Shown here: one piece after another, positions 148 through 13,900 of the stretch
Layout of the letters: the number at the start of each line of letters is the position of its first letter
Numbering within the stretch: position 1 is the stretch's first letter
Assembly (NCBI GenBank): GCA_040218735.1
Contig: JAVJQW010000007.1
Coordinates: 32,001-96,000, forward strand
Direction of reading: 5' to 3'
Origin: Deltaproteobacteria bacterium
GTDB taxonomy: Bacteria; Myxococcota; Kuafuiibacteriia; Kuafuiibacteriales; Kuafuiibacteriaceae
Length of the DNA stretch: 64,000 nt
Made by a program: the position numbers and the translations under genes
The notes under the pieces: generated by a model
Databases searched by the model: none
Told to the model about the DNA's origin: nothing
What the model saw: only the letters and a program-made list of their open reading frames with translations

Positions 148-3045
148 CTAGCGACCAATGAGGCTATCCACGAGCACGCGGAGGACCTGGACGTCGTACG
201 GCTTCTCCAGCCGGTGGTGAGGGACGGAGCGCAGGAACGTCTGAACCCACGGCGTGAAGATCCCTCCCGTGAGGAAGATCGTCCGCTCGGCCAACTCGGG
301 GTAGCGGCGCTGCACCTCTTCGAACAGCTCGACGCCGTTCGTGCCGGGCATCATGAGGTCGCAGATCAACACGTCGAACGGACCGTCCTCCTCCAGTCGA
401 ACCAACGCCGTCTTGGCGTCCAGAGCCCCCACCACACTGTGACCCATCGCGAGCGCGCGTTCGGCGGAGCGAAGCACGATCGGCTCGTCGTCGACGACCA
501 GCACTTTGCCTCGGCGCGCCTGCGCCACGACGGGCTCCGGCTCCGACGTCGGTGTCTCGGCGGAGGGCGCGAGCGGAAGTTTGACCCGGAACGTCGTCCC
601 GCGCCCCAACTCACTTTCGAACGTCAGCTCCCCGTCCAACGACTTGACGATGCGTTGGCAGATGGAGAGGCCGAGCCCCGTTCCCACACCTGAGGGTTTC
701 GTCGTGAAGAAGGGCGTGAAGATCCGCTTTCGAACCGACTCCGGAATACCTTCTCCCGTGTCGGTGACCTCCACGATGAGACGCTCGTCCTGCTCGAACG
801 CCGATACCGTGATCGCGTTCTCCTCGTAGTGACCGCGCGGGATGGCATGAGCTGCGTTGATGACGAGGTTCAAGAAGACCTGACTCAGTCGCGCCTCGTT
901 CCCATAGGCCGGCGGCACGCCGTCGTATCGTGTGACCACGCGCGCGCGCTGCCGCACCTCGTTGCGCGCGACACGCAGCGTCGAGTCGAGGAGACGAGGG
1001 ATGTCGACCGGCTCGCGTCGTTCCTTCTCGACCCTCGAGAACACCTTCAGGTCCCGAACGATGGTGCGAATCCGATCGCCCGCGTCACGGGCGTCGACGA
1101 GGGCCTCGACGATCTCCGGGGACACCGGTGCTTGCTCCGATATCCGCTCGAGCTCACCGACGGCGAGCTCGATGTTTACGATGAGCGCCTGCATCGGGTT
1201 GTTGATCTCGTGGGCGACGCCCGCCGCCAGCAGTCCGACCGAAGCCATTCGATCCGCAACGATGAGTTTAGCGTCGGTGGCCTTCTTCTCGGTCACGTCG
1301 CGCGCAATGACGACCACTCCGGCTCGTGAGTCCTCCTGCGCAACGGGCGCCATCTTGATCCAGTAGATGACTTCCTCGCCGTCGTCTCGGGCGTACGCCT
1401 CTTCCCAAGACTGAGCCTCGCCGGTCTCCACCACGGCCTGCAGGCGTTCTCGCATCTCGGCCGCCTCGTGCCCCACCTTCAGTCCGAGCAGATCACCGTC
1501 CTTCACGATGACTTCGTCCGGCGCGGAGGTCCGCGACACGTAGCGAACGAGCCCCTCGCGATCCACGAAGACCACGATGTCCGGGGCGTACTCGAGCACC
1601 GCGTCCAAGAAGGCGGTGCGCTCGCGCGCGACCTTCTCCGCACGCTTTCGCTCCTCGAACGCCGCCCCGAGCGCCAGGACTTGGGCGATCTGGTTGGCAA
1701 TTGCGCGCGTAAACGAGGACCACGTCGATCCCGAGAGCTCGCTGGTCCGCGAAAACATCGCGAGCACACCCAAGGCCTCGCCCACGTAAGTGAGGGGGAT
1801 GAGTAGAGCGCTACATGTTTCGCTGCGGCCGAGCACGTCCTCGGCGACCGCCGGATCGATGTCCTCGGAGGGGAGTTGAATGGACTGCCCCGTGCGAAAG
1901 CACCGTTCCACGAGCTCGGGGTGTCCGAACAGCGTGTCACATTCGTCGGCGTCCCATTCACGGGCGCCCACGATGGAACGAACCGACAGCGCGTCTCCTT
2001 CGCGTAGATAGAGCGCACCCAGCGAGATGCTCCCGGCGTCGAAGCACGCGGCGAGCGCCTCGTCGAGCGCGACGTCGAGCCCCCGCTGGCCGAGGACCAA
2101 CTCCGAAACGTTCGAGAGGATGGCCAGCTCCGCGGAGAGGGTCGTGCACCGCTGCGACAGGTGGCTGTTCAAGAGGACCTGCCGCTCCAGCTGGCTCACG
2201 ACGCGGTGGAGTCGGTCTTGATCGAGCGATGACTGCGACGGCGTCACATTCGGCGGGGGTGACCGCAAGGCGTCCTCGAGCGCGCGTAGCACCTGCGACA
2301 ACGAGGGCGTCCTCACGACGAGGTCGACGGCTCCCGAGTTCTTGGCGAGCTCGCGATCCGCATCTGCGGTGTAGCTCGAAGTCACCAGCAGCACCGGTAT
2401 CTTGCGGTGAGCGTCGCTCGACCGGATGGCGTAGGCCATCTCGAACCCATCACAGCGCGGCATCATCACGTCCGCGACCACGGCGTCGACATCGCGGTTC
2501 CGCACGATCGAGAGGCCCTCGGCGCCGTCGCTCGCGGTGAGCACGTCGAAGCCGACTTGCTCCATGCTGATCCTGAGGAGCTTCAGTTGAAGTGGGTCGT
2601 CGTCGACGACGAGGACCGTCTTGCCCGCCCCGAAGGGGCAGCCGTCCACGTTCCCCCGCAAGCGAGCATCGACGATCGATGCGAGCCGTCCTGGATCGAC
2701 CGGCTTGCCCACGACGTCGTCGAAGCCGGCCGCCGCCAGGCGCCCCTCCTCGAAGTTCGAAATCATGCTCGAGAACGCGATGATCGTGGTGTCCGCGCCG
2801 CCCTTCGAACGCAGCGGTGCGACGAGCTCGAATCCATCGAAGTCGGGGAGGATGAGATCGAGGAGCACGAGGCGAGGTTGGTGTTGCTCCATGAGACTCA
2901 GGCCGGTCGCGCCGTCGGGAGCCTCCAAGATGTGGTAGCCCTGCTCCGCGAGCGCGAACGCAACGAGCTTGCGGGTGGTCGAGCTGTCGTCGATGCAGAG
3001 GATCTCTCGAGCATCGCCTCGGTTGGAGTCTTCGGTGAGGCTCAT
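148..3045 (-). CDS. Hybrid sensor histidine kinase (REC-REC-GAF-PAS-HisKA-HATPase-REC)
   Basis: Three receivers, each with an intact Asp (LVLLDLILP, VVADVMMP, LICDLMMP). H-box AGVAHEINNP, N-box QVFLNLVINA, G-boxes DTGEG and FFTTKPSGVGTGLGL. Start moved to ATG 3045, which overlaps the upstream stop as ATGA. Confidence 0.93.
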   Translation of the reverse strand: MSLTEDSNRGDAREILCIDDSSTTRKLVAFALAEQGYHILEAPDGATGLSLMEQHQPRLVLLDLILPDFDGFELVAPLRSKGGADTTIIAFSSMISNFEEGRLAAAGFDDVVGKPVDPGRLASIVDARLRGNVDGCPFGAGKTVLVVDDDPLQLKLLRISMEQVGFDVLTASDGAEGLSIVRNRDVDAVVADVMMPRCDGFEMAYAIRSSDAHRKIPVLLVTSSYTADADRELAKNSGAVDLVVRTPSLSQVLRALEDALRSPPPNVTPSQSSLDQDRLHRVVSQLERQVLLNSHLSQRCTTLSAELAILSNVSELVLGQRGLDVALDEALAACFDAGSISLGALYLREGDALSVRSIVGAREWDADECDTLFGHPELVERCFRTGQSIQLPSEDIDPAVAEDVLGRSETCSALLIPLTYVGEALGVLAMFSRTSELSGSTWSSFTRAIANQIAQVLALGAAFEERKRAEKVARERTAFLDAVLEYAPDIVVFVDREGLVRYVSRTSAPDEVIVKDGDLLGLKVGHEAAEMRERLQAVVETGEAQSWEEAYARDDGEEVIYWIKMAPVAQEDSRAGVVVIARDVTEKKATDAKLIVADRMASVGLLAAGVAHEINNPMQALIVNIELAVGELERISEQAPVSPEIVEALVDARDAGDRIRTIVRDLKVFSRVEKERREPVDIPRLLDSTLRVARNEVRQRARVVTRYDGVPPAYGNEARLSQVFLNLVINAAHAIPRGHYEENAITVSAFEQDERLIVEVTDTGEGIPESVRKRIFTPFFTTKPSGVGTGLGLSICQRIVKSLDGELTFESELGRGTTFRVKLPLAPSAETPTSEPEPVVAQARRGKVLVVDDEPIVLRSAERALAMGHSVVGALDAKTALVRLEEDGPFDVLICDLMMPGTNGVELFEEVQRRYPELAERTIFLTGGIFTPWVQTFLRSVPHHRLEKPYDVQVLRVLVDSLIGR

Positions 3046-3437
3046 CTCATTTCCTGTCGGGGTGAAACACAGTCGAGGAACTCCCCGACGACGTCCAGAA
3101 AGGTGTTCGTGTCGATCGGCTTCGATACATACCCATCGCACCCGGCGGCGAGCGCACGGTTTCGATCACCTTTCATCGCTCGCGCCGTGACCGCAACGAC
3201 GACGATGTCTTCGGTGGCGGGATCCGACTTGAGTTGACGCGCCAACTCGAGCCCGTCCGCGTCCGGTAGCTGCAAATCTAGCAGCAGCAGATCAGGCCTC
3301 CGCGCGGCGATCATCCGCTTGGTCTCACGTGCGTCGGTGGCTCCGCCGACATCGTACCCACCGAGCTTCAAGAGGTAGGCCACCAGCTTCAGGTTGGCAG
3401 GGTTGTCGTCGACGACGAGGATGTAGGGCGTACTCAC
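3042..3437 (-). CDS. Single-domain response regulator (DivK/CheY-like)
   Basis: ILVVDDNPAN...LLLLDLQLP...VAVTARAMKGD...GCDGYVSKP. GTG start at 3437 lies 1 nt after the upstream stop. Confidence 0.92.
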   Translation of the reverse strand: MSTPYILVVDDNPANLKLVAYLLKLGGYDVGGATDARETKRMIAARRPDLLLLDLQLPDADGLELARQLKSDPATEDIVVVAVTARAMKGDRNRALAAGCDGYVSKPIDTNTFLDVVGEFLDCVSPRQEMR

Positions 3438-3438
3438 T

Positions 3439-4899
3439 TCAGAGCACCTCGAGGACCGACGACTCGACGCGTCGCGGGAAGACGGCAAAGAAGGTGCAAC
3501 CTCGGTCGGGGTTCGGCCGTACACCCACGTGTCCCCCTTGCGCCTCTACGATTCGTTTCGTGAAGGCGAGCCCGAGGCCCGTGCCCTGGCGCCGCCGTGA
3601 TCGTCCCGCACCAATCTGCTGGAACTCGGTGAAGAGTCTTCCCAGGTCCTTGGGGTCGATACCGTCGCCGTCGTCTTCGACCTCGATGCGAAACGCGTCC
3701 GGTCCTTCGGGGAGGCTGCGCACGATCACTTGTCCTTCGCGCGCGGCGAACTTCAGGGCGTTGGAGAGGAAGTTGTAGAGCACCTGCGTGAGGCGTACTG
3801 CGTCGACGTAGACGCGAGGCACCTCATCCGAGAGCTCCGTCCGGACGCGCACGCGTCGTTCGGTCTCGGACGAGCGGAGGATCATGACGACTTCTCTGAT
3901 TGCGTCCCGCAGGTCGAGCTCCTCCGGATGGAACTCCATTCGGCCAGCCTCGACTTTGGCCAGGTCGAGGATGTCGTTGATCAGTCGCAGAAGGTGTCGG
4001 CCGCTCGAGAGAATGTCCCCGAGGAACTCACGGTATTCGGGCGCGTCCGGCGCGACCTTGCCGCTGTGAAGCAGCTGCGAAAATCCGATCACCGCATTCA
4101 GCGGCGTCCGAAGCTCATGAGACATGTTGGCCAGGAACTCACTCTTCAGGCGGTTGATCTCGTGCATGCGGTGGTTCTCGGCCTCCAGCTCGTTGGCTCG
4201 CCGCCGGAGCTCCGTCGCCTTCCGGGCCTCCGTGACGTCGCGGAGGGAAGCGAGCGAAGCGGGCTCCGACTTCCACGTCATGGGTACGACGCGCATCTCA
4301 CACACCCGCTCGCCGTCGCGTCGCGGGACCCCGACCTCGGTGGTGGTGCGGTCCTTCACCGAGAAGGCCATCGTCTCTCCGAGGAGCGCGCAACGCTCGA
4401 CTCCGAATAGATCCACCGCGGCCTGGTTGACGTAGCGGACCGTCTTGTCGGTACCCACGACCAAGATCGCATCGGGTGTGGTTTCGAGCAGCGCGGCGAT
4501 CTCGGCGTGACGCGCTTCGGCGCGGTTGCGTTCCACCACGTACAAGACACACCGCGAGAACAGCCAGCTGTTCGCCTCCTCTTTGGACAGGACCTCGGCG
4601 GCACCCTCGGCCCGGAGCTCGTCGCGCAGGTCGGTCCTTGCGGCACCCGAGACGACGACCACGGGCACGTCCTGTGCGGCGGCGCGAACCCGTCGGAGTG
4701 TGTCGACACCGCGCGAGTCGGGGAGGTCGAGGTCGAGGAGGACCGCGTCGAACATCGAGCGTTTCAGCTGCTCGGTGGCGTCCGCGAGCGTTTGACTGAC
4801 ACACATGTCGACGACGGCGGCTGGCGACTCGTCGAGCCACTCCCGCGCCAGGTCGGCGTCACCCGGGTTGTCCTCGACGAGGAGAACGTGGAGGTTCAC
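3439..4899 (-). CDS. Cytoplasmic histidine kinase (REC-PAS-HisKA-HATPase) directly downstream of kaiC
   Basis: VLLVEDNPGD receiver, PAS (TPDAILVV...YVNQAA), FLANMSHELRTPL H-box, NFLSNALKF, GTGLGL. GTG start at 4899 is 2 nt after the kaiC stop. The ORF-track N-terminal extension overlaps kaiC and was discarded. Confidence 0.92.
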   Translation of the reverse strand: MNLHVLLVEDNPGDADLAREWLDESPAAVVDMCVSQTLADATEQLKRSMFDAVLLDLDLPDSRGVDTLRRVRAAAQDVPVVVVSGAARTDLRDELRAEGAAEVLSKEEANSWLFSRCVLYVVERNRAEARHAEIAALLETTPDAILVVGTDKTVRYVNQAAVDLFGVERCALLGETMAFSVKDRTTTEVGVPRRDGERVCEMRVVPMTWKSEPASLASLRDVTEARKATELRRRANELEAENHRMHEINRLKSEFLANMSHELRTPLNAVIGFSQLLHSGKVAPDAPEYREFLGDILSSGRHLLRLINDILDLAKVEAGRMEFHPEELDLRDAIREVVMILRSSETERRVRVRTELSDEVPRVYVDAVRLTQVLYNFLSNALKFAAREGQVIVRSLPEGPDAFRIEVEDDGDGIDPKDLGRLFTEFQQIGAGRSRRRQGTGLGLAFTKRIVEAQGGHVGVRPNPDRGCTFFAVFPRRVESSVLEVL

Positions 4900-4901
4900 G
4901 A

Positions 4902-6422
4902 CTACTCCTCCGGGTTGAAGAGTCCGCCGATCCGCGTCAGCTCGTCGAGTGCGACCTGTTGCGGGAAGCCAGAGAGGATCCCGGAGATGTTCCGGAACGG
5001 CTTGCCGATGTGCATGCCCTCTCCGTCGATCGTGAACTCTCGGATGTCCTTGTCGTGCATCGAGCCACGCATCTTCAGGACGGTGAGCCCGCGACGCATC
5101 TCCCCGAGCATCTCCACGTACCGCAGCAGGATGATGGAGTCCGTGATGGTCGAGATGTGCGCTTCGGTGACCGAGCTCCCGCCGAGCAACGTGGGCGTCG
5201 TGGCGGTGAAGAGCCCGCCGATCTCCTTGTGTTTGATGAACGACGTGATCCCGATGACGAACTCGCGATAGCCCTTGAGCGAAGAGACACGCTCCAGCGC
5301 GGAGAGGCTGTCCACGGCGATGCGGTTCGGCTTGAACTTGTCGATCGTCTTCTTGATGCGGATGAGGTGGTCCTCGAGCCCCATCGCTTCCGGGTACAGA
5401 CAGACGACCTCGAGGAGCCCGTCGCGTTCCATCTGCTCGAAGTCGACGCCCCACCCGGTCGCGTTGCGGAAGAGCTGATCGCGACTCTCTTCGAACGCAA
5501 AGAGCAGGCAGCGCTCACCCTTCGCGGCACCTCCCTCGATGAACTCCGTGCACATCAACGTCTTGCCGCAGCCGGTCGCGCCGGTGACGAGGATGATCGA
5601 GTCGCGAAAGAAACCGCCGCCGCACATCTTGTCGAGCTCGTCGTTTCCGGACTGGATGCGAATGTTCGAGGAACCCTGCTTCAGCTCCATGGCCGAGAGG
5701 GGGATGACGACGATGCCTTCCTGCGGAATCACCGTGAACGGATACTCACCTTTTTGGTGAGGCGTTCCGCGAAACTTGAGCGTCTCGATCGTTCGCCGTC
5801 GCTTCTCGTCCTCGAGGATGTTGCGAAGGACGACCACGTTGTCCGCGACGAACTCCTCGACGCCGAAGCGACTGATGTCTCCGTACTCATCCCGCCGCTC
5901 CGCAGTCATCACGGACGTGACGCCGAGCTGCTTGAGTGCACTCGCGATTCGGAAGAGCTCACGACGAACGATTGCGGCATCCGAGAACTGCGTGAAGATG
6001 GCGCCGAGTGAGTCGAGCGACACGCGCTTGGCGTTCGTGCGGCGAACCGCATGCTCGATGCGCGTCATCAGCGCCCCGAGGTCGTAGGCACCCGTCACGA
6101 CGATCTCCTCGGGTTGAGGTGATGCATCGACGAAGGCCCACATGCCCTCCGCCTCCCAGCTCGGGATGTCCCAGTCGAGCCCCAACATGTTGCGACGAAT
6201 GTCGCCCGGGGGCTCCTCGAAGGTGACGAACACGCCGGGTTCTCCGCGCTTGACGCCCTCCGCGAGGAACTGCGCCGCGAAGATGGTCTTCGCGCTACCT
6301 GCGGTCCCGGCCACCAGAGTGGTTCGTACTTCCGGCAGCCCTCCTTCGGTGATCAGGTCGAGGCCGGGGATGCCGGTCTCGAGCTTCTGAACGGGGGCAC
6401 GATCGATGGTGGAAGATTTCAT
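4902..6422 (-). CDS. kaiC: Circadian clock protein KaiC, double-domain, KaiC3-like
   Basis: Two RecA-like domains. CI has Walker [15 protein letters not shown] and LKFRG; CII has [13 protein letters not shown] and LKMRG. The phosphosite motif [11 protein letters not shown] corresponds to T426/S431/T432. 506 aa. Confidence 0.97.
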
Positions 6423-6721
6423 GAGCGCTCCTCGTATCCGCCCGTCGGGCTCGGCTGAAGGTCCAGGCCCAGCAGGACCTTCTCGGTGTCCGATAGGTCG
6501 CCGATGATTCGTCGCAGGGGTAGCGGGAGCGACTTGATGAGCGTCGGCGTCGCGAGGATCCGCTCGTCCTCCGCGAGCTGCGGCCGTTCGATGATGTCGA
6601 AGACCTGCATCTCGTACTTACCTTCGAGCTCGACGCGACAAATGCGCTCGAGGTTTTCGATCGCTCGTTCGGAACGCGGCGTATTACCGGTGATATAGAG
6701 TTTCAAGATGAACCGATTCAT
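6419..6721 (-). CDS. kaiB: Circadian clock protein KaiB
   Basis: 100 aa: [16 protein letters not shown]...[46 protein letters not shown] overlaps at both ends. Confidence 0.97.
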
Positions 6722-7587
6722 GAACCAACCCCCATGGTTCGGGTGACTCGAGTTCGGTAGAACGAGACGAGATCGCCCATGAGCTCTAGGAGGACTAGAC
6801 GAGCCTCCTCGACGTACGCCGTAGCCCGTGCCGCCGTGCAGTTCGCGATCAGCGAACGCACCGCGAGCGTGTGAATTTCGATGACGTCTCGGGGGCTGCT
6901 CCGCACGAAGCCAAGGCGGTCCGAGAGCTCCAGTACTGCTCCGTGATACTCGGTGGTCTCTTTGTGGACGCGATGCTCGAGGGCCATCTCGAGGATTCGC
7001 GCATAGTCCTCGATCGCCCGCTCGAAGGCCTCCGGCGCGGTGTCCCGGAGCCGCCCCGCGGCGTAGAGCTGCGCGGTGACCGCCGTGCCTGGATCCCTCG
7101 AGAGCTCTTCGATCCCGGCGATCTCCTCGTCGCGTCGCTCGCGCTCTCGCGTCTGCTCCAGCTCGCGCTGCAGACGCGCGCGCTCGAGCGCGTAGCGGAT
7201 CGCGCGCGACAGCAGCGAGGCATCCAAGGGCGCCTTCGGCACGTAGTCTTGTGCGCCACGCTCGACCGCGTCGCGGCCCAAGGCTTCGTCGCGTGGTGAG
7301 CTCACCAGCACGAGGACCGGCACCTGCGGGGCGCACGTGTGGAGGCGCGCGAACGTGTCGAGGCCGCTCGAATCGGGCAGCTCGAGACCGAGGAGCACCA
7401 GCTCGAAGCGGCGGTCCACCAGGGCCGTGATGGCCTCGGCGAGGGTCTCCACGCTCGTGATTTGCCAGGAGGTGAAGGCCTCACGGCACGTCTGCTCGAC
7501 GCTCGCACGGTCGTGGGCGACGCTCTCGACGAGCAGGATCTCCGCCGTCTGGGTTTCTTCGTTCCCCCGGTTGTTCAGCCCGGCCAC
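6718..7587 (-). CDS. kaiA3: KaiA3-like protein: pseudo-receiver plus KaiA-type C-terminal helical domain
   Basis: N-terminal REC fold. C-terminal YARILE...PRDVIEIH...[16 protein letters not shown] matches the KaiA C-terminal pattern (Y..IL, IIEIH, RLTLID..AHL...YR). Its stop overlaps the kaiB start. Confidence 0.85.
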
Positions 7588-7677
7588 GTCGAGAGTGTCG
7601 ACGCTATCGGGGGATCTCGGGAGTCGCGAAGGTGCCGATTCTCTGTCAGGAAATTGCCGACGCGCGTGTCCGCAGTG

Positions 7678-8310
7678 TCACTCGACGACGCCGTTCTGGA
7701 GCGCATAACGCGCGATATCGACGTAGGAGCTCAGCCCGGTCTTCTCGCGGATGCGGGCCAGGTACGTGGCTACGGTCTTCTCGCTCAACGAGAGCTCCGC
7801 CGCGATCTCCTTGAGCGCCCCGCCCAGCGCGATGCGCCGAAAGATGTCGAGCTCTCGGGGGGAGAGTGACTCGTGCGGGAGGCTCGGTGGCGGCTGGCCG
7901 ATCGACTTGGCCACGGCGTTGGCGGTCTCCGGGTGCAGATACTTACCGCCGCTCGACGCCTGCTCGAAGGCCTCGACCAGGTCTTCGGCCGCGCGGTGTT
8001 TGTGGAGGATCCCGTTCGCTCCGGCCTGGAGCGTCTGCACCACGTACTCGACCTCGGTCAGCGCGGTCAGCACGAGGATCGGGACCTCTTCGTAGCGGCT
8101 TCGAATCGTCCCGATGAGCTCCACGATTCCGCGGCCCGGCATCATGATGTCGAGGATGATGCAGGTCCACGCATGGGCGTCGAGCACCGCGAGCACCCCG
8201 GTCTCGTCTTCCGCTTCGTGGACCTCGATGTCTTCGAACGCGTCCGCGATCGTCTCGCGCACACCTCGGCGCGTAATCGCGTGGTCGTCGGCCACGAGCA
8301 CGTAGCGCAT
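7678..8310 (-). CDS. NarL/FixJ-family response regulator (REC + LuxR HTH)
   Basis: VLVADDHAITRRG, IILDIMMPG, LSPRELDIF...KEIAAELSLSEKTVATY. Confidence 0.95.
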   Translation of the reverse strand: MRYVLVADDHAITRRGVRETIADAFEDIEVHEAEDETGVLAVLDAHAWTCIILDIMMPGRGIVELIGTIRSRYEEVPILVLTALTEVEYVVQTLQAGANGILHKHRAAEDLVEAFEQASSGGKYLHPETANAVAKSIGQPPPSLPHESLSPRELDIFRRIALGGALKEIAAELSLSEKTVATYLARIREKTGLSSYVDIARYALQNGVVE

Positions 8311-8312
8311 CG

Positions 8313-9812
8313 TCAGCTCCTGTCCTGCCAGGGCACGGTCACCCGAACGCGAGTGCCCGTGGGTTGGGATCGATCGATGGATGCCGTGCCGCCCAGGCCT
8401 TCGGCCCGCTCCCTTACGCCGAGGAGGCCGAGTGAACGAGGTGAGTCGATCAGGGCTTCGTCGATCCCGACGCCGTCGTCGGCAACGACGAGCTCGAGCT
8501 CGTCATCACGCCGCTTCAGCGTGACGTACACGTTCTTGGCCACCGCGTGTCGGGCGACGTTCGTGAGGAGCTCCTGAAGGACGCGGAACAGCTCCGTCTC
8601 GATCTTGTTTCGTGGACGACCGAGCTCTGCGATCTCGAGGCTGACCTTCGTTCGCGCGCGACTCTCGAAACGCCTCGCTTCGTCGCGCACGGCGGCGGCC
8701 AGACCAAAGGAGTCGAGCGCCGCGGGGCGAAGGCGCGCCGCGATTCCGCGCACGGCTTCCGCCATCTCGTCGGTGAGCGCCGACGTCTCGTGCAGTCGGA
8801 CATCGACCTCGCTCGGGATCTTGGAGCCGCGGAGGTGCCGCTCGATCCACTTGAGGTCCATCTTGATCGCCGTGAGCATCTGACCGAGGTGATCGTGGAC
8901 CTCGCGCGAGAGGCGGGTCTGCTCTTCCTCGCGGATCTCGTTGAGGCGCTTCGTCAGCGCGCGCATTCGCTGCTCTCGGTCGACGAGCTCGGCGTTGCGT
9001 CGTCGCACCTCGCGACCGCGCCGTTCCAGCTCGGTGATGTCCCGGCAAACGATGGTGCGTCCGTGGACCTTGCCGTGTTCATCGCGCAGCGGAGTCACCG
9101 CGACGGAGGCGGTGATCTCCTCGGAGCGTCGCGCGATCTGAATGACGTCCTTGACGACCGTCGATCCGTTGAGACGTTGGGCCGCAGCTGCGACCTCACG
9201 AAGGCCCACCACCTCGGCGCGCTCCGACGCGAGCTCTTCGATGGGTTTGCCCACGGCGGTCGCGCTGGGGATGTCGAAGAAGCTCTCGGCGGCGAGGTTC
9301 CAGCTCGTGACGATCCCGTCGACGCTCGTACTCAGGATGGCGTCTGCCGTGCTGCCGACGAGCGAACCCATGAGTGAACGCACACGCTCCTCACGCTTCC
9401 GTGCGCTCGACTCACCCATCCGGGCCATCGCGAAACCGAGCGCCCGCGTCAGGTTCTCGATCCCGACGTCGTTCTTGGAGATGTAGTCCTGAGCGCCCTC
9501 CGTCAGGCACGCGAGTGCGAGCGCCTCGTCCTCGAGCGCGGTCAACACGAGGATCGGGGTGTTCGCGGCGACTCTGCGTATCGCCCGAACACACTCGATG
9601 CCCACGCAGTCCGGGAGGCGAAGGTCGAGGATGATGGCGTCGACCGCCTCGTCTGCCAGAACCGCGTGAGCGGCCTTCATCGTCTCCGCACGGAAGATGG
9701 GGAGCTCGATGTCCGGGGCGTCCTCCTCCAACAGGCTGACGATGTAGTCGGCGTCGCCGGGGTTGTCTTCGACGATGAGGAGGCGAGGGACCTTGCTCTC
9801 GAAGCGCCTCAC
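8313..9812 (-). CDS. NarX/UhpB-class histidine kinase (REC-PAS-HisKA_3-HATPase)
   Basis: LIVEDNPGD receiver, PAS (DAILS...WNLAAE), EEQTRLSREVHDHLGQ, FRVLQELLTNVARHA, DDGVG, LGLLGVRER. Confidence 0.93.
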   Translation of the reverse strand: MRRFESKVPRLLIVEDNPGDADYIVSLLEEDAPDIELPIFRAETMKAAHAVLADEAVDAIILDLRLPDCVGIECVRAIRRVAANTPILVLTALEDEALALACLTEGAQDYISKNDVGIENLTRALGFAMARMGESSARKREERVRSLMGSLVGSTADAILSTSVDGIVTSWNLAAESFFDIPSATAVGKPIEELASERAEVVGLREVAAAAQRLNGSTVVKDVIQIARRSEEITASVAVTPLRDEHGKVHGRTIVCRDITELERRGREVRRRNAELVDREQRMRALTKRLNEIREEEQTRLSREVHDHLGQMLTAIKMDLKWIERHLRGSKIPSEVDVRLHETSALTDEMAEAVRGIAARLRPAALDSFGLAAAVRDEARRFESRARTKVSLEIAELGRPRNKIETELFRVLQELLTNVARHAVAKNVYVTLKRRDDELELVVADDGVGIDEALIDSPRSLGLLGVRERAEGLGGTASIDRSQPTGTRVRVTVPWQDRS

Positions 9813-10231
9813 GGGAGCCTCGCGACGCCGAGCCAGAACGACTGGATCGAGCGAACGGCGGCTTCGAACTGTTCGAGCCCGACCGGCTTCGTGACGTAGC
9901 AGTTGGCCCCCAACGCGTAACTCTCCGCGATGTCCGGCGCCGCGTCCGACGAGGTCAGCACGACGACGGGCAGCCGCGCGAGCGTCGGGTGCGCTCGAAG
10001 GTGCGCGAGGACGTCGTGCCCGGACTTACGGGGGAGGTTGAGATCGAGGAGCACGAGATCAAACGCCTCCTGGGCGTCGTTGGCGCTCGCTTCGAGCTTC
10101 GCGATCGCATCGATGCCGTCGATCGCGATCGAGAACGCGAGTGTGGCGTCACCGTCGCGGAGTGTCTCTTGCGTGAGGTCGACGTCTCCCGGGTTGTCTT
10201 CGACGAGGAGGATGCGACGGAGTTGGTTCAT
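9809..10231 (-). CDS. Rcp1/RcpA-like single-domain response regulator
   Basis: ILLVEDNPGD...LVLLDLNLPRKSG...VVVLTSS...YALGANCYVTKP...IQSFWL. The C-terminal FW motif is typical of phytochrome-associated regulators. ATG at 10231 overlaps the upstream stop as ATGA. Confidence 0.92.
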   Translation of the reverse strand: MNQLRRILLVEDNPGDVDLTQETLRDGDATLAFSIAIDGIDAIAKLEASANDAQEAFDLVLLDLNLPRKSGHDVLAHLRAHPTLARLPVVVLTSSDAAPDIAESYALGANCYVTKPVGLEQFEAAVRSIQSFWLGVARLP

Positions 10232-12777
10232 GCCGACACCTCCGCGCTCTGCAGCGTCACGAAGAACGTGGTGCCGCCGCCCGGCGTCGCCTCGAACCAG
10301 ATTCGGCCTCCGTGACGCTCGACGATGCGCTTCGTGATCGCGAGCCCCATGCCGCTGCCCTCGTAGGTACCGATCGGGTGGAGCCGCTGGAACATCTGAA
10401 AAACGCGCTCCGCCTGCTCCGGATCGATACCGATGCCGTGGTCGATGACCGCGACGCGCCACGCGCTCCCTTCGGCGCAGGCCTCGATACGGACGCGCGG
10501 CGCCGCCTCCCCGTGGAACTTGATCGCGTTCTGGATCAGGTTCTGGAAGAGCTGCGCGAGCTGCACCGGATCCCCCTCGACGGTGGGGAGAATGTCGTAC
10601 GTGACTTCGCCGCCCGTCGTGTGGAGCGTGCTCGCGAAGGATCGAACGACGCGTTCCATGAGCACGCCGAGGTCGACCGGTTCGAACGGACGACCTTGGG
10701 AGCCGACGCGTGAGTACTCGAGCAGCGCGTGAACGAGCGCCTGCATGCGCCGCGTACCGTCGACCGCGTAGCGAATGTACTTGTCCGCGCGCTCGTCGAG
10801 TTGCCCTTCGTAGCGGCGCGCGAGGAGCTCCGAGTAGTTCGCGACCATGCGGAGTGGTTCCTGAAGGTCGTGCGACGCCACGTACGCGAACTGCGCGAGC
10901 TCGGCGTTGCTTCGCTCCAGCTCTTGCTCGCGCGTGATGCGTTCGGTGAGGTCGGTGATCGACGCAATCGTCGACAAACCCGACGGACCGTCGATCGGCG
11001 TGAGCCCGACTTCGACGGTGACCTCGCTGCCGTCGCGGCGGACGGCGCGCAACTCGCGGCCCTTGCCCATCGGTCGCTTCGAAGGGGCAGCGTTGAACGA
11101 GCGGATGTGGTCGCCGTGTTCGCCGCGCACGTGGGCGGGGACGAGCCCGTTGACGTGCTGCCCGAGGAGCTCGCCCTCGTCGTACGCGAAGAGATCGTCC
11201 GCGGCTTGATTCGTGAGCGTGATGACGCCCTCGCGATCGACGATCACCATCGGGTTCGGCGTCGCCTCGATGATGCGAGCGAACCACGCAGCCGAACGCT
11301 CGATCTCCGTCACGTCGACCACGGAGACGAGCGTATACCATTCGGTCTCCGCTGCGAGTCGGGTCCGGACGACCTGGAGCGGAATCTCGTGGCCGTCGCG
11401 ATGTCGACCGAGGCACCGCTCGGATCCTGCGTCCGCGTCGACCTCGGAGTCGGCGTCTTCGATGTCCGGGAGAAGGGTACGTACGGACGCGCCGATCAAG
11501 TCGCCGTCCTTCGCACCGAAGATCGCCAACGCCGCAGGGTTGGTGTGCACGATCGTTCCGTCGCGGGTAGTGACCAGCTTGCCGTTGGGGGAGCGGTCCA
11601 CGACGAGCCGGAACTGCGCGCTCTGCTTTGCGAGGCGTGCATTGCGATCGAGAATCGTCGTGCGCATGGTTTCGAACGCGCTCGCGAGGGTGATGACCTC
11701 TCGACCCCCGTGTTTCGGGAGCGACGGGCCCGGCGCGCCGTCCGATGCTTCGAGCGCGGCGACAGCGGTAGTCAATCGTTCCAGGGGTTGGGTGAGTGAG
11801 CGTGCAATAAATGCAGAGAGCAGCAAACCCACCAAGATCGTGACCAGCCCGACGACCCAGACCGTTTGGACGGCGCGATCGATGGGGCCGCGGAGGTCCG
11901 ACAGGGGCGTCGACTCGACGAACACGAGCCGCTCCGCGTTGCGTTCCCACGGCCGCGTTGCATAGACGAGCGCGTCGAGCTGGATCGTCTGCGGGGAATG
12001 AGAAGCCAGCGCGGTCTCGAGAAACGGGAGCTCCTCCCCGGCTCGGTGTTCGTGCCCCAGCTCCGTCGCGAACGTGTGCTCCGCGTCGGGGTGCAGCAGG
12101 AAATCCCCGCGTGCGTCGATCAGGTAGACGGCGCCCTCCGCCGACGCGGCGGTCATGTCCGCAAAGATGTTGGTCATGTCCAGGTTGAGCACGAGGATGG
12201 CGCGTGCTCCGCCGTCCGCTCCGACGGGGCCGGCGATTCTCAGCGTTGGTCGGTACGGGACCTCGATGCGGTGGTGCTCCTGGTTGAGCTCGATCTTCGA
12301 GACGAAGAGCTCGTCGCCCTCGAGCGCGGCGGCGCGTTGAAAGTAGGGGCGGTGTGCCTTCGTTTGAAGGTCCTCACGTGGGACCACGCGCGGCGGTCCT
12401 CGCGGGCTGCGCTCCACGCGGATGCGCTCGTGGCCGGTCGGGTGATCGAGCACCCGTAGCTGGAGGATCGCCGGGTGGCTGGCCACCACCGACACCAGGT
12501 GGGCGGTCAGCCGTGTCTCCACTGTATCGTCCTGGGATGCGGACGCGAGGAGCTCCGCAACGAGCGGGCTCGTCCGAAGCTCGACGATCTCGGACTTCGC
12601 CGCGTCCAAGTGCTGCGTGAGCATCGCGGCGAGTCGATCGGTGCGGCGGTGCATCGAACGGGTCGCGATGGGCAGCAGCGATGCTTCGAGTCGAACGCCG
12701 ACCAAGACGACGGTTGCGGCGATCGAAACGAAGACGAGGCAGGCACTCGCGAGCCCAAAACGCCTCGCGATACTCAT
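10228..12777 (-). CDS. Membrane sensor kinase (TM-Cache-TM-HAMP-PAS-PAS-HisKA-HATPase), Cph1-class kinase core
   Basis: Two hydrophobic helices flank a periplasmic domain (RPYFQRA, FVSKIELNQE). Then HAMP (SLTQPLERLT...EVITLASAF), two PAS domains, FAYVASHDLQEPLR, QLFQNLIQNAIKF and FQRLH...YEGSGMGL. Start moved to ATG 12777. Confidence 0.92.
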   Translation of the reverse strand: MSIARRFGLASACLVFVSIAATVVLVGVRLEASLLPIATRSMHRRTDRLAAMLTQHLDAAKSEIVELRTSPLVAELLASASQDDTVETRLTAHLVSVVASHPAILQLRVLDHPTGHERIRVERSPRGPPRVVPREDLQTKAHRPYFQRAAALEGDELFVSKIELNQEHHRIEVPYRPTLRIAGPVGADGGARAILVLNLDMTNIFADMTAASAEGAVYLIDARGDFLLHPDAEHTFATELGHEHRAGEELPFLETALASHSPQTIQLDALVYATRPWERNAERLVFVESTPLSDLRGPIDRAVQTVWVVGLVTILVGLLLSAFIARSLTQPLERLTTAVAALEASDGAPGPSLPKHGGREVITLASAFETMRTTILDRNARLAKQSAQFRLVVDRSPNGKLVTTRDGTIVHTNPAALAIFGAKDGDLIGASVRTLLPDIEDADSEVDADAGSERCLGRHRDGHEIPLQVVRTRLAAETEWYTLVSVVDVTEIERSAAWFARIIEATPNPMVIVDREGVITLTNQAADDLFAYDEGELLGQHVNGLVPAHVRGEHGDHIRSFNAAPSKRPMGKGRELRAVRRDGSEVTVEVGLTPIDGPSGLSTIASITDLTERITREQELERSNAELAQFAYVASHDLQEPLRMVANYSELLARRYEGQLDERADKYIRYAVDGTRRMQALVHALLEYSRVGSQGRPFEPVDLGVLMERVVRSFASTLHTTGGEVTYDILPTVEGDPVQLAQLFQNLIQNAIKFHGEAAPRVRIEACAEGSAWRVAVIDHGIGIDPEQAERVFQMFQRLHPIGTYEGSGMGLAITKRIVERHGGRIWFEATPGGGTTFFVTLQSAEVSA

Positions 12778-12931
12778 GTTCTCGCCGACCGGGCCGATGG
12801 GTTCGAAGGAGTGGTGTCGGCCGCGTTGGCCTTCATCCGCACCGTCGTACCACCGCGCAGCGATGGTGCCAACGCGGTGGTGTGGATGGGCTACCGCAAC
12901 GTTTGCGCCTCTGGGATCCGTGTTGGAAGTG

Positions 12932-13900
12932 ATGACGAGCGGGGAGGCGATTCGAGTCGACGCGGGTCGGCGGACGCGTCTGTTGATCGTCGACGACGAA
13001 CCCACCGTCGCTCGTTCGATCGCCCGGGCGCTCGAGTTCAGTGGGTACGAGACCTGCGTCGCGTCGTGCTACGCCGAAGCGATCGATCTCGTCGACAGCA
13101 TCGATCTCCTCCTGACGGACATGCAGATGCCGGGGCCCTCCGGGTTGGACCTCTTGCTGGAGACGCAGCGTCGGCGTCCCGATGTGCCGGTGGCGATCAT
13201 GACGGCGTACGCGTCCGTGGAGGACGCGCTCAACGCGATGCAACACGGCGCGTACGACTACCTGCTCAAGCCCTGCAACACGGATGAGATCATCCTCAAG
13301 GTCGAGTTGGGACTGAGGCTGTCGCGTTATGAGCACGAGCTTCGACGCCAGAACGACGAACTGCTCGCGATGTCGAAGCGACTCGCGCACCAGAACTCGG
13401 AGCTGGAGCGGCTCGCGACGACCGACGACCTCACGAAGTTGGCGAACCGCCGTTCCTTCCTGCGGCGACTCGACGAGGCCGTTGCGAGCGCGACGCGGTA
13501 TCGCCAGCCGTTGTGTCTACTCATGCTCGACATCGATCACTTCAAACGAATCAACGATGGGTTCGGTCACCCTCGCGGTGACGCCGTGTTGGTCGAAGCC
13601 GCAGCGCGACTTCGGGCGAGCGTGCGTGAGGTCGATCTCGTCGGCCGGCTCGGCGGTGAAGAGATAGGCGTGCTCCTCCCCAACACGGAGCTGGACGGTG
13701 CGCTCGAGCTCGCCGAACGAATCCGCGTTCGCATCGGTCGCGAAGACTTCGAGGAGGTTGGTCGCGTGACGGCCTCCATCGGAGTCGCATCGCTTCAGGC
13801 CGACGCCGCGCGGTTGATCGCCGAAGCGGACGAAGCGCTCTACGACGCCAAACGCAGCGGCCGCGATCGCGTCGCGTTTTCGTCGGTGCGCGCCGCCTGA
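12932..13900 (+). CDS. Response-regulator diguanylate cyclase (REC-coiled coil-GGDEF)
   Basis: LLIVDDE/LLTDMQMP receiver, then DDLTKLANRR, DIDHFKRINDGFGHPRGD, I-site REVD and active site RLGGEEI. Confidence 0.93.
   Translation: MTSGEAIRVDAGRRTRLLIVDDEPTVARSIARALEFSGYETCVASCYAEAIDLVDSIDLLLTDMQMPGPSGLDLLLETQRRRPDVPVAIMTAYASVEDALNAMQHGAYDYLLKPCNTDEIILKVELGLRLSRYEHELRRQNDELLAMSKRLAHQNSELERLATTDDLTKLANRRSFLRRLDEAVASATRYRQPLCLLMLDIDHFKRINDGFGHPRGDAVLVEAAARLRASVREVDLVGRLGGEEIGVLLPNTELDGALELAERIRVRIGREDFEEVGRVTASIGVASLQADAARLIAEADEALYDAKRSGRDRVAFSSVRAA

Follow-up and report, generated by a model that had tools for sequence, protein, structure and literature searches.

Our analysis of the window, a stretch of 64,000 nucleotides from a Myxococcota genome (11.6 Mb, 68.8% G+C), indicates that a gene on its minus strand, adjoining kaiB and kaiC, encodes a KaiA3-type protein whose N-terminal receiver has recently lost the residue at which receivers are phosphorylated. 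We consider it likely that this protein is a regulator of KaiB and KaiC, with a C-terminal domain (C-domain) that acts on KaiC as a dimer and an aspartate-less receiver that is blind to phosphorylation and still held by selection. The initial annotation, made from the letters alone, had described a KaiA-like protein with a degenerate receiver whose input would not be by phosphorylation, and both parts of that description agree with what we find. Input by Asp phosphorylation has very probably been lost, because the second acidic residue, the Asp and the Thr of the active site are all gone. The gene, its domains, the residues concerned and the two kai genes that follow it are:

6718-7587, minus strand: kaiA3-type gene, 289 aa (GTG start, TGA stop), an open reading frame (ORF) for a receiver, a long linker helix and a KaiA-like C-domain
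7210-7539, minus strand: receiver (pseudo-receiver) domain, residues 17-126 (PF00072, E 1.7e-11; a (beta-alpha)5 fold in the AlphaFold2 model)
7522-7527, minus strand: Glu21 and Ser22, the acidic pair (E21, GAG, at 7525-7527; S22, AGC, at 7522-7524)
7387-7389, minus strand: Gly67 at the position of the phospho-acceptor Asp (codon GGT; family column D in 99 of 130)
7303-7305, minus strand: Val95 at the conserved Thr/Ser position, PVLVL-V-SS (codon GTG)
7234-7236, minus strand: Lys118, the conserved Lys, kept (codon AAG)
6730-7095, minus strand: KaiA-like four-helix C-domain, residues 165-286 (structure searches, profile and predicted dimer interface)
6419-6721, minus strand: kaiB, 100 aa (PF07689, E 1.7e-27; NCBIfam KaiB, 115 bits against a cut-off of 110)
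4902-6422, minus strand: kaiC, 506 aa (NCBIfam KaiC, 729.5 bits against a cut-off of 408)

The three genes overlap by ATGA at both junctions (kaiA3 TGA with kaiB ATG, kaiB TGA with kaiC ATG). The window KaiC matches S. elongatus KaiC (1u9i_A) with 598 bits over residues 8-499, and a search with it as query finds one kaiC only in the genome. The DNA ligase of this genome has 10 matches that bear an organism name, and all of them are from metagenome-assembled genomes of Myxococcota or 'Deltaproteobacteria'.

We turn to the receiver. PF00072 is the sole Pfam match of the protein, at 44.7 bits against a cut-off of 30.2, and a Foldseek search with the full-length AlphaFold2 model (pLDDT 89.4 overall, 92-98 per block for residues 21-150) puts receiver structures on top, with E down to 1.2e-07, the C-domain remaining unseen behind the receiver rows. 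The model places the active-site residues at the C-terminal ends of the strands beta1 (16-20), beta3 (63-67), beta4 (91-95) and beta5 (114-117). All three replacements named in the initial annotation are present on the coding strand, Gly for the phospho-acceptor Asp, 'VES' for the family consensus 'VED', which removes the second acidic residue, the one that binds metal, and Val for the Thr/Ser of beta4. Across 130 aligned members of the family the second acidic column holds D in 109, the Thr/Ser column T in 90 and S in 16, and the Asp column D in 99, S in 18, G in 4, P and N in 3 each, and A, E and F in 1 each. The composition of the last column excludes misalignment and makes Gly67 a real departure from the family rule, which answers the call for an orthologue alignment. 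Tyr115, the switch Tyr at K-3, is retained along with Lys118. Thus three of the five residues that define a typical phospho-accepting receiver (DD, D, T/S, K) are missing here (E21 S22/G67/V95/K118), and the domain is an aspartate-less receiver (ALR), that is, a PF00072-type domain above the cut-off with Gly at the Asp column.

A sequencing or assembly error at codon 67, for which a check of GGT against GAT had been advised, was considered and is ruled out. A contig of run X2 spans 7099-7497 and a contig of RNA library X5 spans 7306-7456, both with 0 differences to the window, and a protein 97% identical to that of the window (P0003) has Gly at the Asp site as well. The X5 contigs are no proof of transcription, as such libraries may hold DNA; X4 and X5 leave some of the stretch uncovered. 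A more divergent X3 contig (25,240 bases), with 71 differences over 1001 bases, shows none at 7387-7389 among the 40 of 77 places listed.

By its sequence relationships the window protein belongs to the KaiA3 family, which has been defined by a receiver, a KaiA-like C-domain and a gene upstream of kaiB3 (Kobler et al. 2024, PMC11372060; we draw on excerpts of this and of the other papers cited). The public protein collection holds proteins 100% and 97% identical to it, and a search of that collection gave 409 matches, with 75 of the 120 matches listed sharing the C-terminal half by phmmer; proteins named Geminocystis are among those that share the C-domain. A scan of species-representative genomes with a 21-row alignment (match at E<=1e-3) found 80 related loci, in cyanobacteria (Microcystis, Crocosphaera, Geminocystis, Lyngbya and others) and in other phyla (Nitrospirota-type Magnetobacterium, Chloroflexota, Acidobacteriota, Verrucomicrobiota, Armatimonadota-type Chthonomonadales and others). 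kaiB directly follows the kaiA3-type gene in 73 of the 80 and kaiC lies within the locus in 54, some loci ending at contig ends. The cyanobacterial orthologues, which group with the window protein in one tree, are 33-38% identical to it over 83-91% of its length. Twelve Microcystis loci have Ser at the Asp site (EDSTL) and kaiB without an adjacent kaiC, and because PMC11372060 describes just such kaiA3-kaiB3 pairs without an adjacent kaiC3 in Microcystis, with the Asp missing, they tie our family to the published one. The initial annotation took described KaiA3 to keep the Asp. That holds for the Synechocystis protein (D65), while the Microcystis and Pleurocapsa proteins are without it, according to the excerpt of PMC11372060. 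Within the Myxococcota a full-length match was found in 3 of 80 other genomes of the phylum (G001, G011 and G049); the genes of G011 and G049 both have an intact receiver (EDDTK) and both adjoin kaiB-kaiC.

How did the receiver come to this state? After dereplication at 93% identity the 130 receiver-bearing sequences of the family leave 109 rows, with all five residues present in 66, the Asp missing in 19, and the Asp kept but another of the five lost in 24. Over PF00072 domains as a whole, 2.0% are without the Asp and about 6% are pseudo-receivers (PMC12632262), a rough comparison, since the family rows are interrelated and are no random sample. A quick maximum-likelihood tree (LG+G4, with SH-aLRT support only) requires at least seven changes between Asp and non-Asp. 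Judged from this tree, the loss in the window protein is separate from the other losses in the family, as the initial annotation had supposed in speaking of an independent step. The pattern of repeated loss is already known in kind, because pseudo-receivers of the PF00072 type are stated to intermingle with typical receivers and to have arisen many times (PMC12632262).

The clade of the window protein (SH-aLRT 99-100) contains three states of the receiver. P0005, 61% identical to the window protein, has the canonical residues (EDDTK); P0004, 68% identical, reads EGDVK; and the window protein (P0001) and P0003 both read ESGVK. P0004 is encoded by G001, the collection's sole further genome from this genus, and lies in a locus of the same gene order, with identities of 57% for the HisKA_3 kinase, 68% for the NarL regulator, 68% for kaiA3, 82% for kaiB, 90% for kaiC and 67% for the hybrid kinase. 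In P0004 the Asp is still present and the second acidic residue and the Thr are already gone. The decay was therefore stepwise, the Asp being the final loss after those of the metal-binding acidic residue and the Thr, and the flanking kinases stayed the same throughout. The suggestion of an intermediate step in the conversion is borne out by this relative. We also observe that five Crocosphaera/Cyanothece loci (L022, L028, L039, L046 and L051) keep the Asp with Met at the Thr position and Ile or Leu at the Lys (EDDMI/EDDML); they are pseudo-receivers by the five-residue definition, though they pass a check of the Asp only.

The mechanism that we propose runs as follows. The four-helix C-domain would form the homodimer. 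As Synechocystis KaiA3 and canonical KaiA suggest by analogy, it would bind the C-terminal region of KaiC, stimulate its autophosphorylation and later be sequestered through KaiB. A receiver that lost first its metal-binding acidic residue and Thr and then its Asp would, by the known chemistry of receiver active sites, no longer be switchable by Asp phosphorylation. It is probably a module held in a fixed state, or regulated by a protein or ligand, that tunes the C-domain as the canonical KaiA pseudo-receiver does. The canonical KaiA pseudo-receiver senses quinone redox state, and quinone binding by the window receiver might be considered by this analogy, as a lead only.

Is such a receiver still a working part of the protein? 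It might instead be a functionless, decaying remnant, with an N-terminal half that drifts neutrally and a protein that works on one domain, as the truncated KaiA of Nostocales does, and single-domain KaiA is indeed found in cyanobacteria (PMC8113500). A Nei-Gojobori comparison with the G001 gene gives a dN/dS of 0.30 for the receiver, about twice the 0.16 of the C-domain, with dS near saturation (0.96-1.25), and some relaxation of constraint on the receiver is possible. Moreover, in the lineage that unites the window protein with P0004 the receiver is 55-58% identical to that of P0005, behind the 65-69% of the C-domain, whereas in canonical relatives the two are about equal (59.5-62.2% and 62.1-64.7%). 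A ratio of 0.30 is nevertheless far from neutral. Of the 20 listed differences from the X3 contig in the receiver region (7200-7560), 17 fall on third codon positions; P0003 differs from the window receiver at 3 of 110 residues; and K118 and the switch Tyr are kept in a domain that is modelled with the high pLDDT given above. We conclude that the receiver is under purifying selection, with a constraint weaker than that on the C-domain, which mirrors canonical kaiA, where dN is higher in the N-terminal region than in the KaiA domain (PMC8113500), and we hold a mere remnant to be improbable. The receiver could also have remained a phosphorylation switch that works through another residue, such as Glu69 or Asp72 of the beta3-alpha3 loop or a Ser/Thr, under the neighbouring kinases. 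The gene does have five two-component genes around it on its own strand, the cluster of HisKA_3 kinase, NarL regulator, kaiA3BC and hybrid kinase is conserved in locus L001 and largely in L002, where the Asp is kept, and K118 is retained. However, with the second acidic residue, the Thr and the Asp all gone the phosphotransfer site is dismantled, D72 is part of an 'LPDS' motif that occurs family-wide, with or without the Asp, and nothing in the analysis pointed to another acceptor, so that we can give this explanation hardly any credence.

A different doubt concerns the C-domain: the protein might be no KaiA analogue at all, and rather a response-regulator-like protein whose output domain is helical and unrelated, of the RsbU-N or RsbR kind, for example an output factor downstream of KaiC. 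Folded alone, the C-domain reaches a pLDDT of 84.7, and VIA-align places KaiA first and second among 48,161 chains (5c5e_A and 1r5q_A, both Z 11.4; 2.4 A rmsd over 90 residues for 1r5q_A), with 5jwr_E at Z 10.5. A Foldseek search with the same model returns KaiA in 7 of the first 10 rows (probability 0.91-0.99, best E 0.094), and a profile of 58 C-domains, run against the PDB, returns KaiA as 7 of 17 matches at E<=10 (E 0.086-3.4). KaiA thus comes top in two independent structure searches and recurs in the profile search. The domain is a KaiA-like four-helix domain, as in the KaiA3 family, at a significance that is moderate for a helical bundle, and we take the predicted fold match as supportive, to be counted only alongside synteny and family. 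The predicted homodimer scores 0.54 against 0.02 for the best control, above a mark attained by 20 of the 30 proteins whose solved structure is a pair and by 1 of the 23 whose solved structure is a single chain, with a contact agreement of at least 46% and a partner pLDDT of at least 75 in the runs. Its interface is limited to residues 229-235 and 263-284, which are the most conserved motifs of the family; since solved KaiA dimers exist, this pass may mirror likeness to known structures.

Beyond the raised dN/dS of the receiver, several points weigh against our reading of the protein. By sequence the profile links the C-domain to KaiA weakly (E 0.086) and scores the unrelated SHERP better, at E 0.011; in Pfam at E<=10 the C-domain has RsbU_N as its single row (E 0.04) and no match to the KaiA family (PF07688), and the whole protein has no KaiA row in Pfam at E<=0.01. 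Searched as a single sequence against PDB chains, the C-domain finds no KaiA, its best match being an ethanolamine microcompartment protein (E 0.039). A Z of 11.4 lies below the value of about 13 under which helical bundles may match by their common arrangement, and a stressosome RsbR-type domain (3zta_A) stands near KaiA at Z 10.7. Sll0485, the Synechocystis KaiA3, lies outside our alignments, so that the link to KaiA3 runs via the cyanobacterial orthologues named in PMC11372060, and functional readings of an aspartate-less KaiA3 draw on sequence, predicted structure and family analogy. Yet the gene sits upstream of kaiB in nearly all of the related loci, RsbU-N itself shares the KaiA fold (PMC11372060), and the family includes the cyanobacterial KaiA3 proteins. 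Their Synechocystis member (Sll0485) binds KaiC3, stimulates its autophosphorylation, gives a damped oscillation in vitro and is reported in a KaiB-dependent complex (PMC11372060). An unrelated output domain therefore seems to us very unlikely, and a KaiA3-type regulator with a phosphorylation-blind receiver remains the reading that we prefer.

The kaiA3BC operon has two-component genes on either side of it, which form a run on a single strand, 148-13005 (minus), in which several ORFs overlap as listed and true starts are uncertain:

148-3141, minus strand: multi-receiver kinase ORF, 997 aa
3042-3524, minus strand: single-domain receiver, overlapping the 148-3141 ORF
3439-4899, minus strand: REC-PAS-HisKA-HATPase hybrid kinase (Pfam), beginning 3 bases past kaiC
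7678-8310, minus strand: NarL-type response regulator, REC + GerE (Pfam), upstream neighbour of kaiA3
8313-9812, minus strand: REC-PAS-HisKA_3-HATPase kinase (Pfam), upstream neighbour
9809-11950, minus strand: ORF ending in a further receiver
10228-13005, minus strand: kinase ORF, 925 aa

Orthologues of the hybrid kinase stand directly after kaiC in L001 (67% identity) and downstream in L002 (41%), and this protein is a candidate output or input kinase. For the NarL regulator, the L001 orthologue (68%) is the gene immediately upstream of kaiA3 and the L002 orthologue (48%) lies farther upstream, and the HisKA_3 kinase has an orthologue in L001 (57%) and a partial match in L002 (44%).

The initial annotation derived the degenerate receiver from the same receiver subfamily as its neighbours, and here our results disagree. 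When residues 11-140 are searched by tblastn against the organism's own genome, 23 matches are found, among which the receiver of the kinase at 3439-4899 ranks ninth (38% over 95 aa) and that of the kinase at 8313-9812 tenth (34% over 94 aa). Better placed than both are six receivers encoded on other contigs (33-41% identity) and that of a KaiA3 paralogue, and the receiver of the adjacent NarL regulator is absent from the 23; another search of the genome ranks them much alike. A special kinship with the receivers of the neighbouring kinases was rejected on this ranking. The shared LDLxLPD motif is a trait of a broad receiver class that also heads many REC-PAS kinases, and does not signal local descent. 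The window receiver came with the KaiA3 gene, as KaiA3 orthologues share 55-65% identity across it.

The paralogue just mentioned is a second KaiA3-type gene in the same genome, at G000 C59:76585-77370 (minus), equivalent to L081:9568-10419 (minus). Its product of 283 aa is 31% identical to the window protein and has an intact receiver (EDDTK); it adjoins neither kaiB nor kaiC, its neighbours including an aspartokinase and a DNA ligase, and it groups with P0071 on the tree (SH-aLRT 99). The genome also holds a distant second KaiB-like sequence at G000 C42:388987-389238, 38% identical to the window KaiB over 84 aa. In a metagenome-assembled genome (MAG) titled Candidatus Helarchaeota archaeon, and so labelled as Asgard, a KaiA3-kaiB-kaiC locus with an intact receiver (L020) lies on a 604-kb contig, and its tree neighbours are bacterial (SH-aLRT 95).

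Elsewhere in the family the KaiA3-type C-domain is fused to other input modules. Among loci L056-L080, where 17 ORFs upstream of kaiB were scanned, examples are L080:7371-8462, L056:7200-8429, L060:7560-8528 and L067:6465-8516, and the arrangements found are:

L060, L061, L065, L068, L070, L074: PAS alone with the KaiA3-type C-domain
L064: PAS only, in a long ORF
L056: PAS-PAS, in an Acidobacteriaceae MAG
L058, L059, L062, L067, L071, L077, L079: REC-PAS, mostly in Chloroflexaceae
L063: REC with a stretch without domain call
L080: Protoglobin (PF11563, E 1.6e-33), in a Methylobacter MAG

kaiB follows all 17 of these ORFs, and kaiC follows all except that of L062, where the contig ends inside kaiB. 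A literature search for KaiA combined with protoglobin found nothing, and the excerpt of PMC8113500 mentions variable N-terminal domains only within cyanobacterial KaiA.

What does a single degenerate receiver tell us? Aspartate-less KaiA3 and the repeated origin of pseudo-receivers are already published, and taken by itself the case is of modest weight. What is added here is a dated series of three steps inside one genus, a KaiA-type gene from the Myxococcota and the finding that degenerate receivers make up a high share of the family. Clock evolution still poses the questions of how KaiA came by its pseudo-receiver and of what these domains sense. P0005, P0004 and the window protein represent three natural states of the receiver within the same KaiA3BC operon and between the same flanking kinases, a set well suited to testing what is lost and what is retained once phosphorylation of a receiver stops. 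The placing of a KaiA-type gene in the Myxococcota stands against a survey of myxobacteria in which, in the excerpt used here, no KaiA is reported (PMC11832031). More speculatively, the KaiA3 family could be a hot spot for the conversion of receivers into pseudo-receivers that retraces the route of canonical KaiA again and again in lineages alive today, and the window protein and the intact orphan paralogue could together give one KaiC both a phosphorylation-independent and a phosphorylation-dependent KaiA3. We think this rather unlikely; if true, it would amount to a two-input timer in a non-phototroph.

Comparison with known systems places the window protein closest to Synechocystis KaiA3 (Sll0485) and its orthologues, with which it shares a receiver and a KaiA-like C-domain, a length of about 280-300 aa and a gene directly upstream of kaiB(-kaiC). 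It differs in having Gly, Ser at the second acidic position and Val at the Thr, where the Synechocystis protein keeps D65, and its myxococcotal host lies outside the cyanobacteria and the five non-cyanobacterial genera listed with KaiA3 in the excerpt of PMC11372060 (Roseiflexus, Chloroflexus, Chloroherpeton, Rhodospirillum, along with Bradyrhizobium). The KaiA3 proteins of Microcystis and Pleurocapsa likewise carry an aspartate-less receiver on a KaiA3 scaffold. However, the Microcystis protein keeps both acidic residues and the Thr and has lost the Asp and the Lys, whereas that of the window keeps the Lys and has lost the second acidic residue, the Asp and the Thr; the two are separate events on the tree, and in Microcystis there is no adjacent kaiC, while here kaiC overlaps kaiB.

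Receivers without the Asp occur well beyond this family, FrzS of Myxococcus xanthus reportedly being an example. With such ALRs and pseudo-receivers the window domain shares its PF00072 type, its missing Asp and a phylogenetic intermingling with typical receivers (PMC12632262). It stands apart from ALRs in general in being joined to a KaiA-like output domain and in sitting among kinases rather than as an orphan, and its family, with 19 of 109 rows lacking the Asp, lies far above the 2.0% of PF00072 (PMC12632262). Canonical S. elongatus KaiA (1r8j, 4g86, 5c5e) resembles the window protein in its layout, an Asp-less receiver fold followed by a helical dimerising domain. The two differ in that PF07688 goes unmatched in the window protein, whose receiver is still recognized by PF00072, and in that its model retains alpha4 (helix 98-109), the helix that the KaiA pseudo-receiver is described as being without (PMC11372060).

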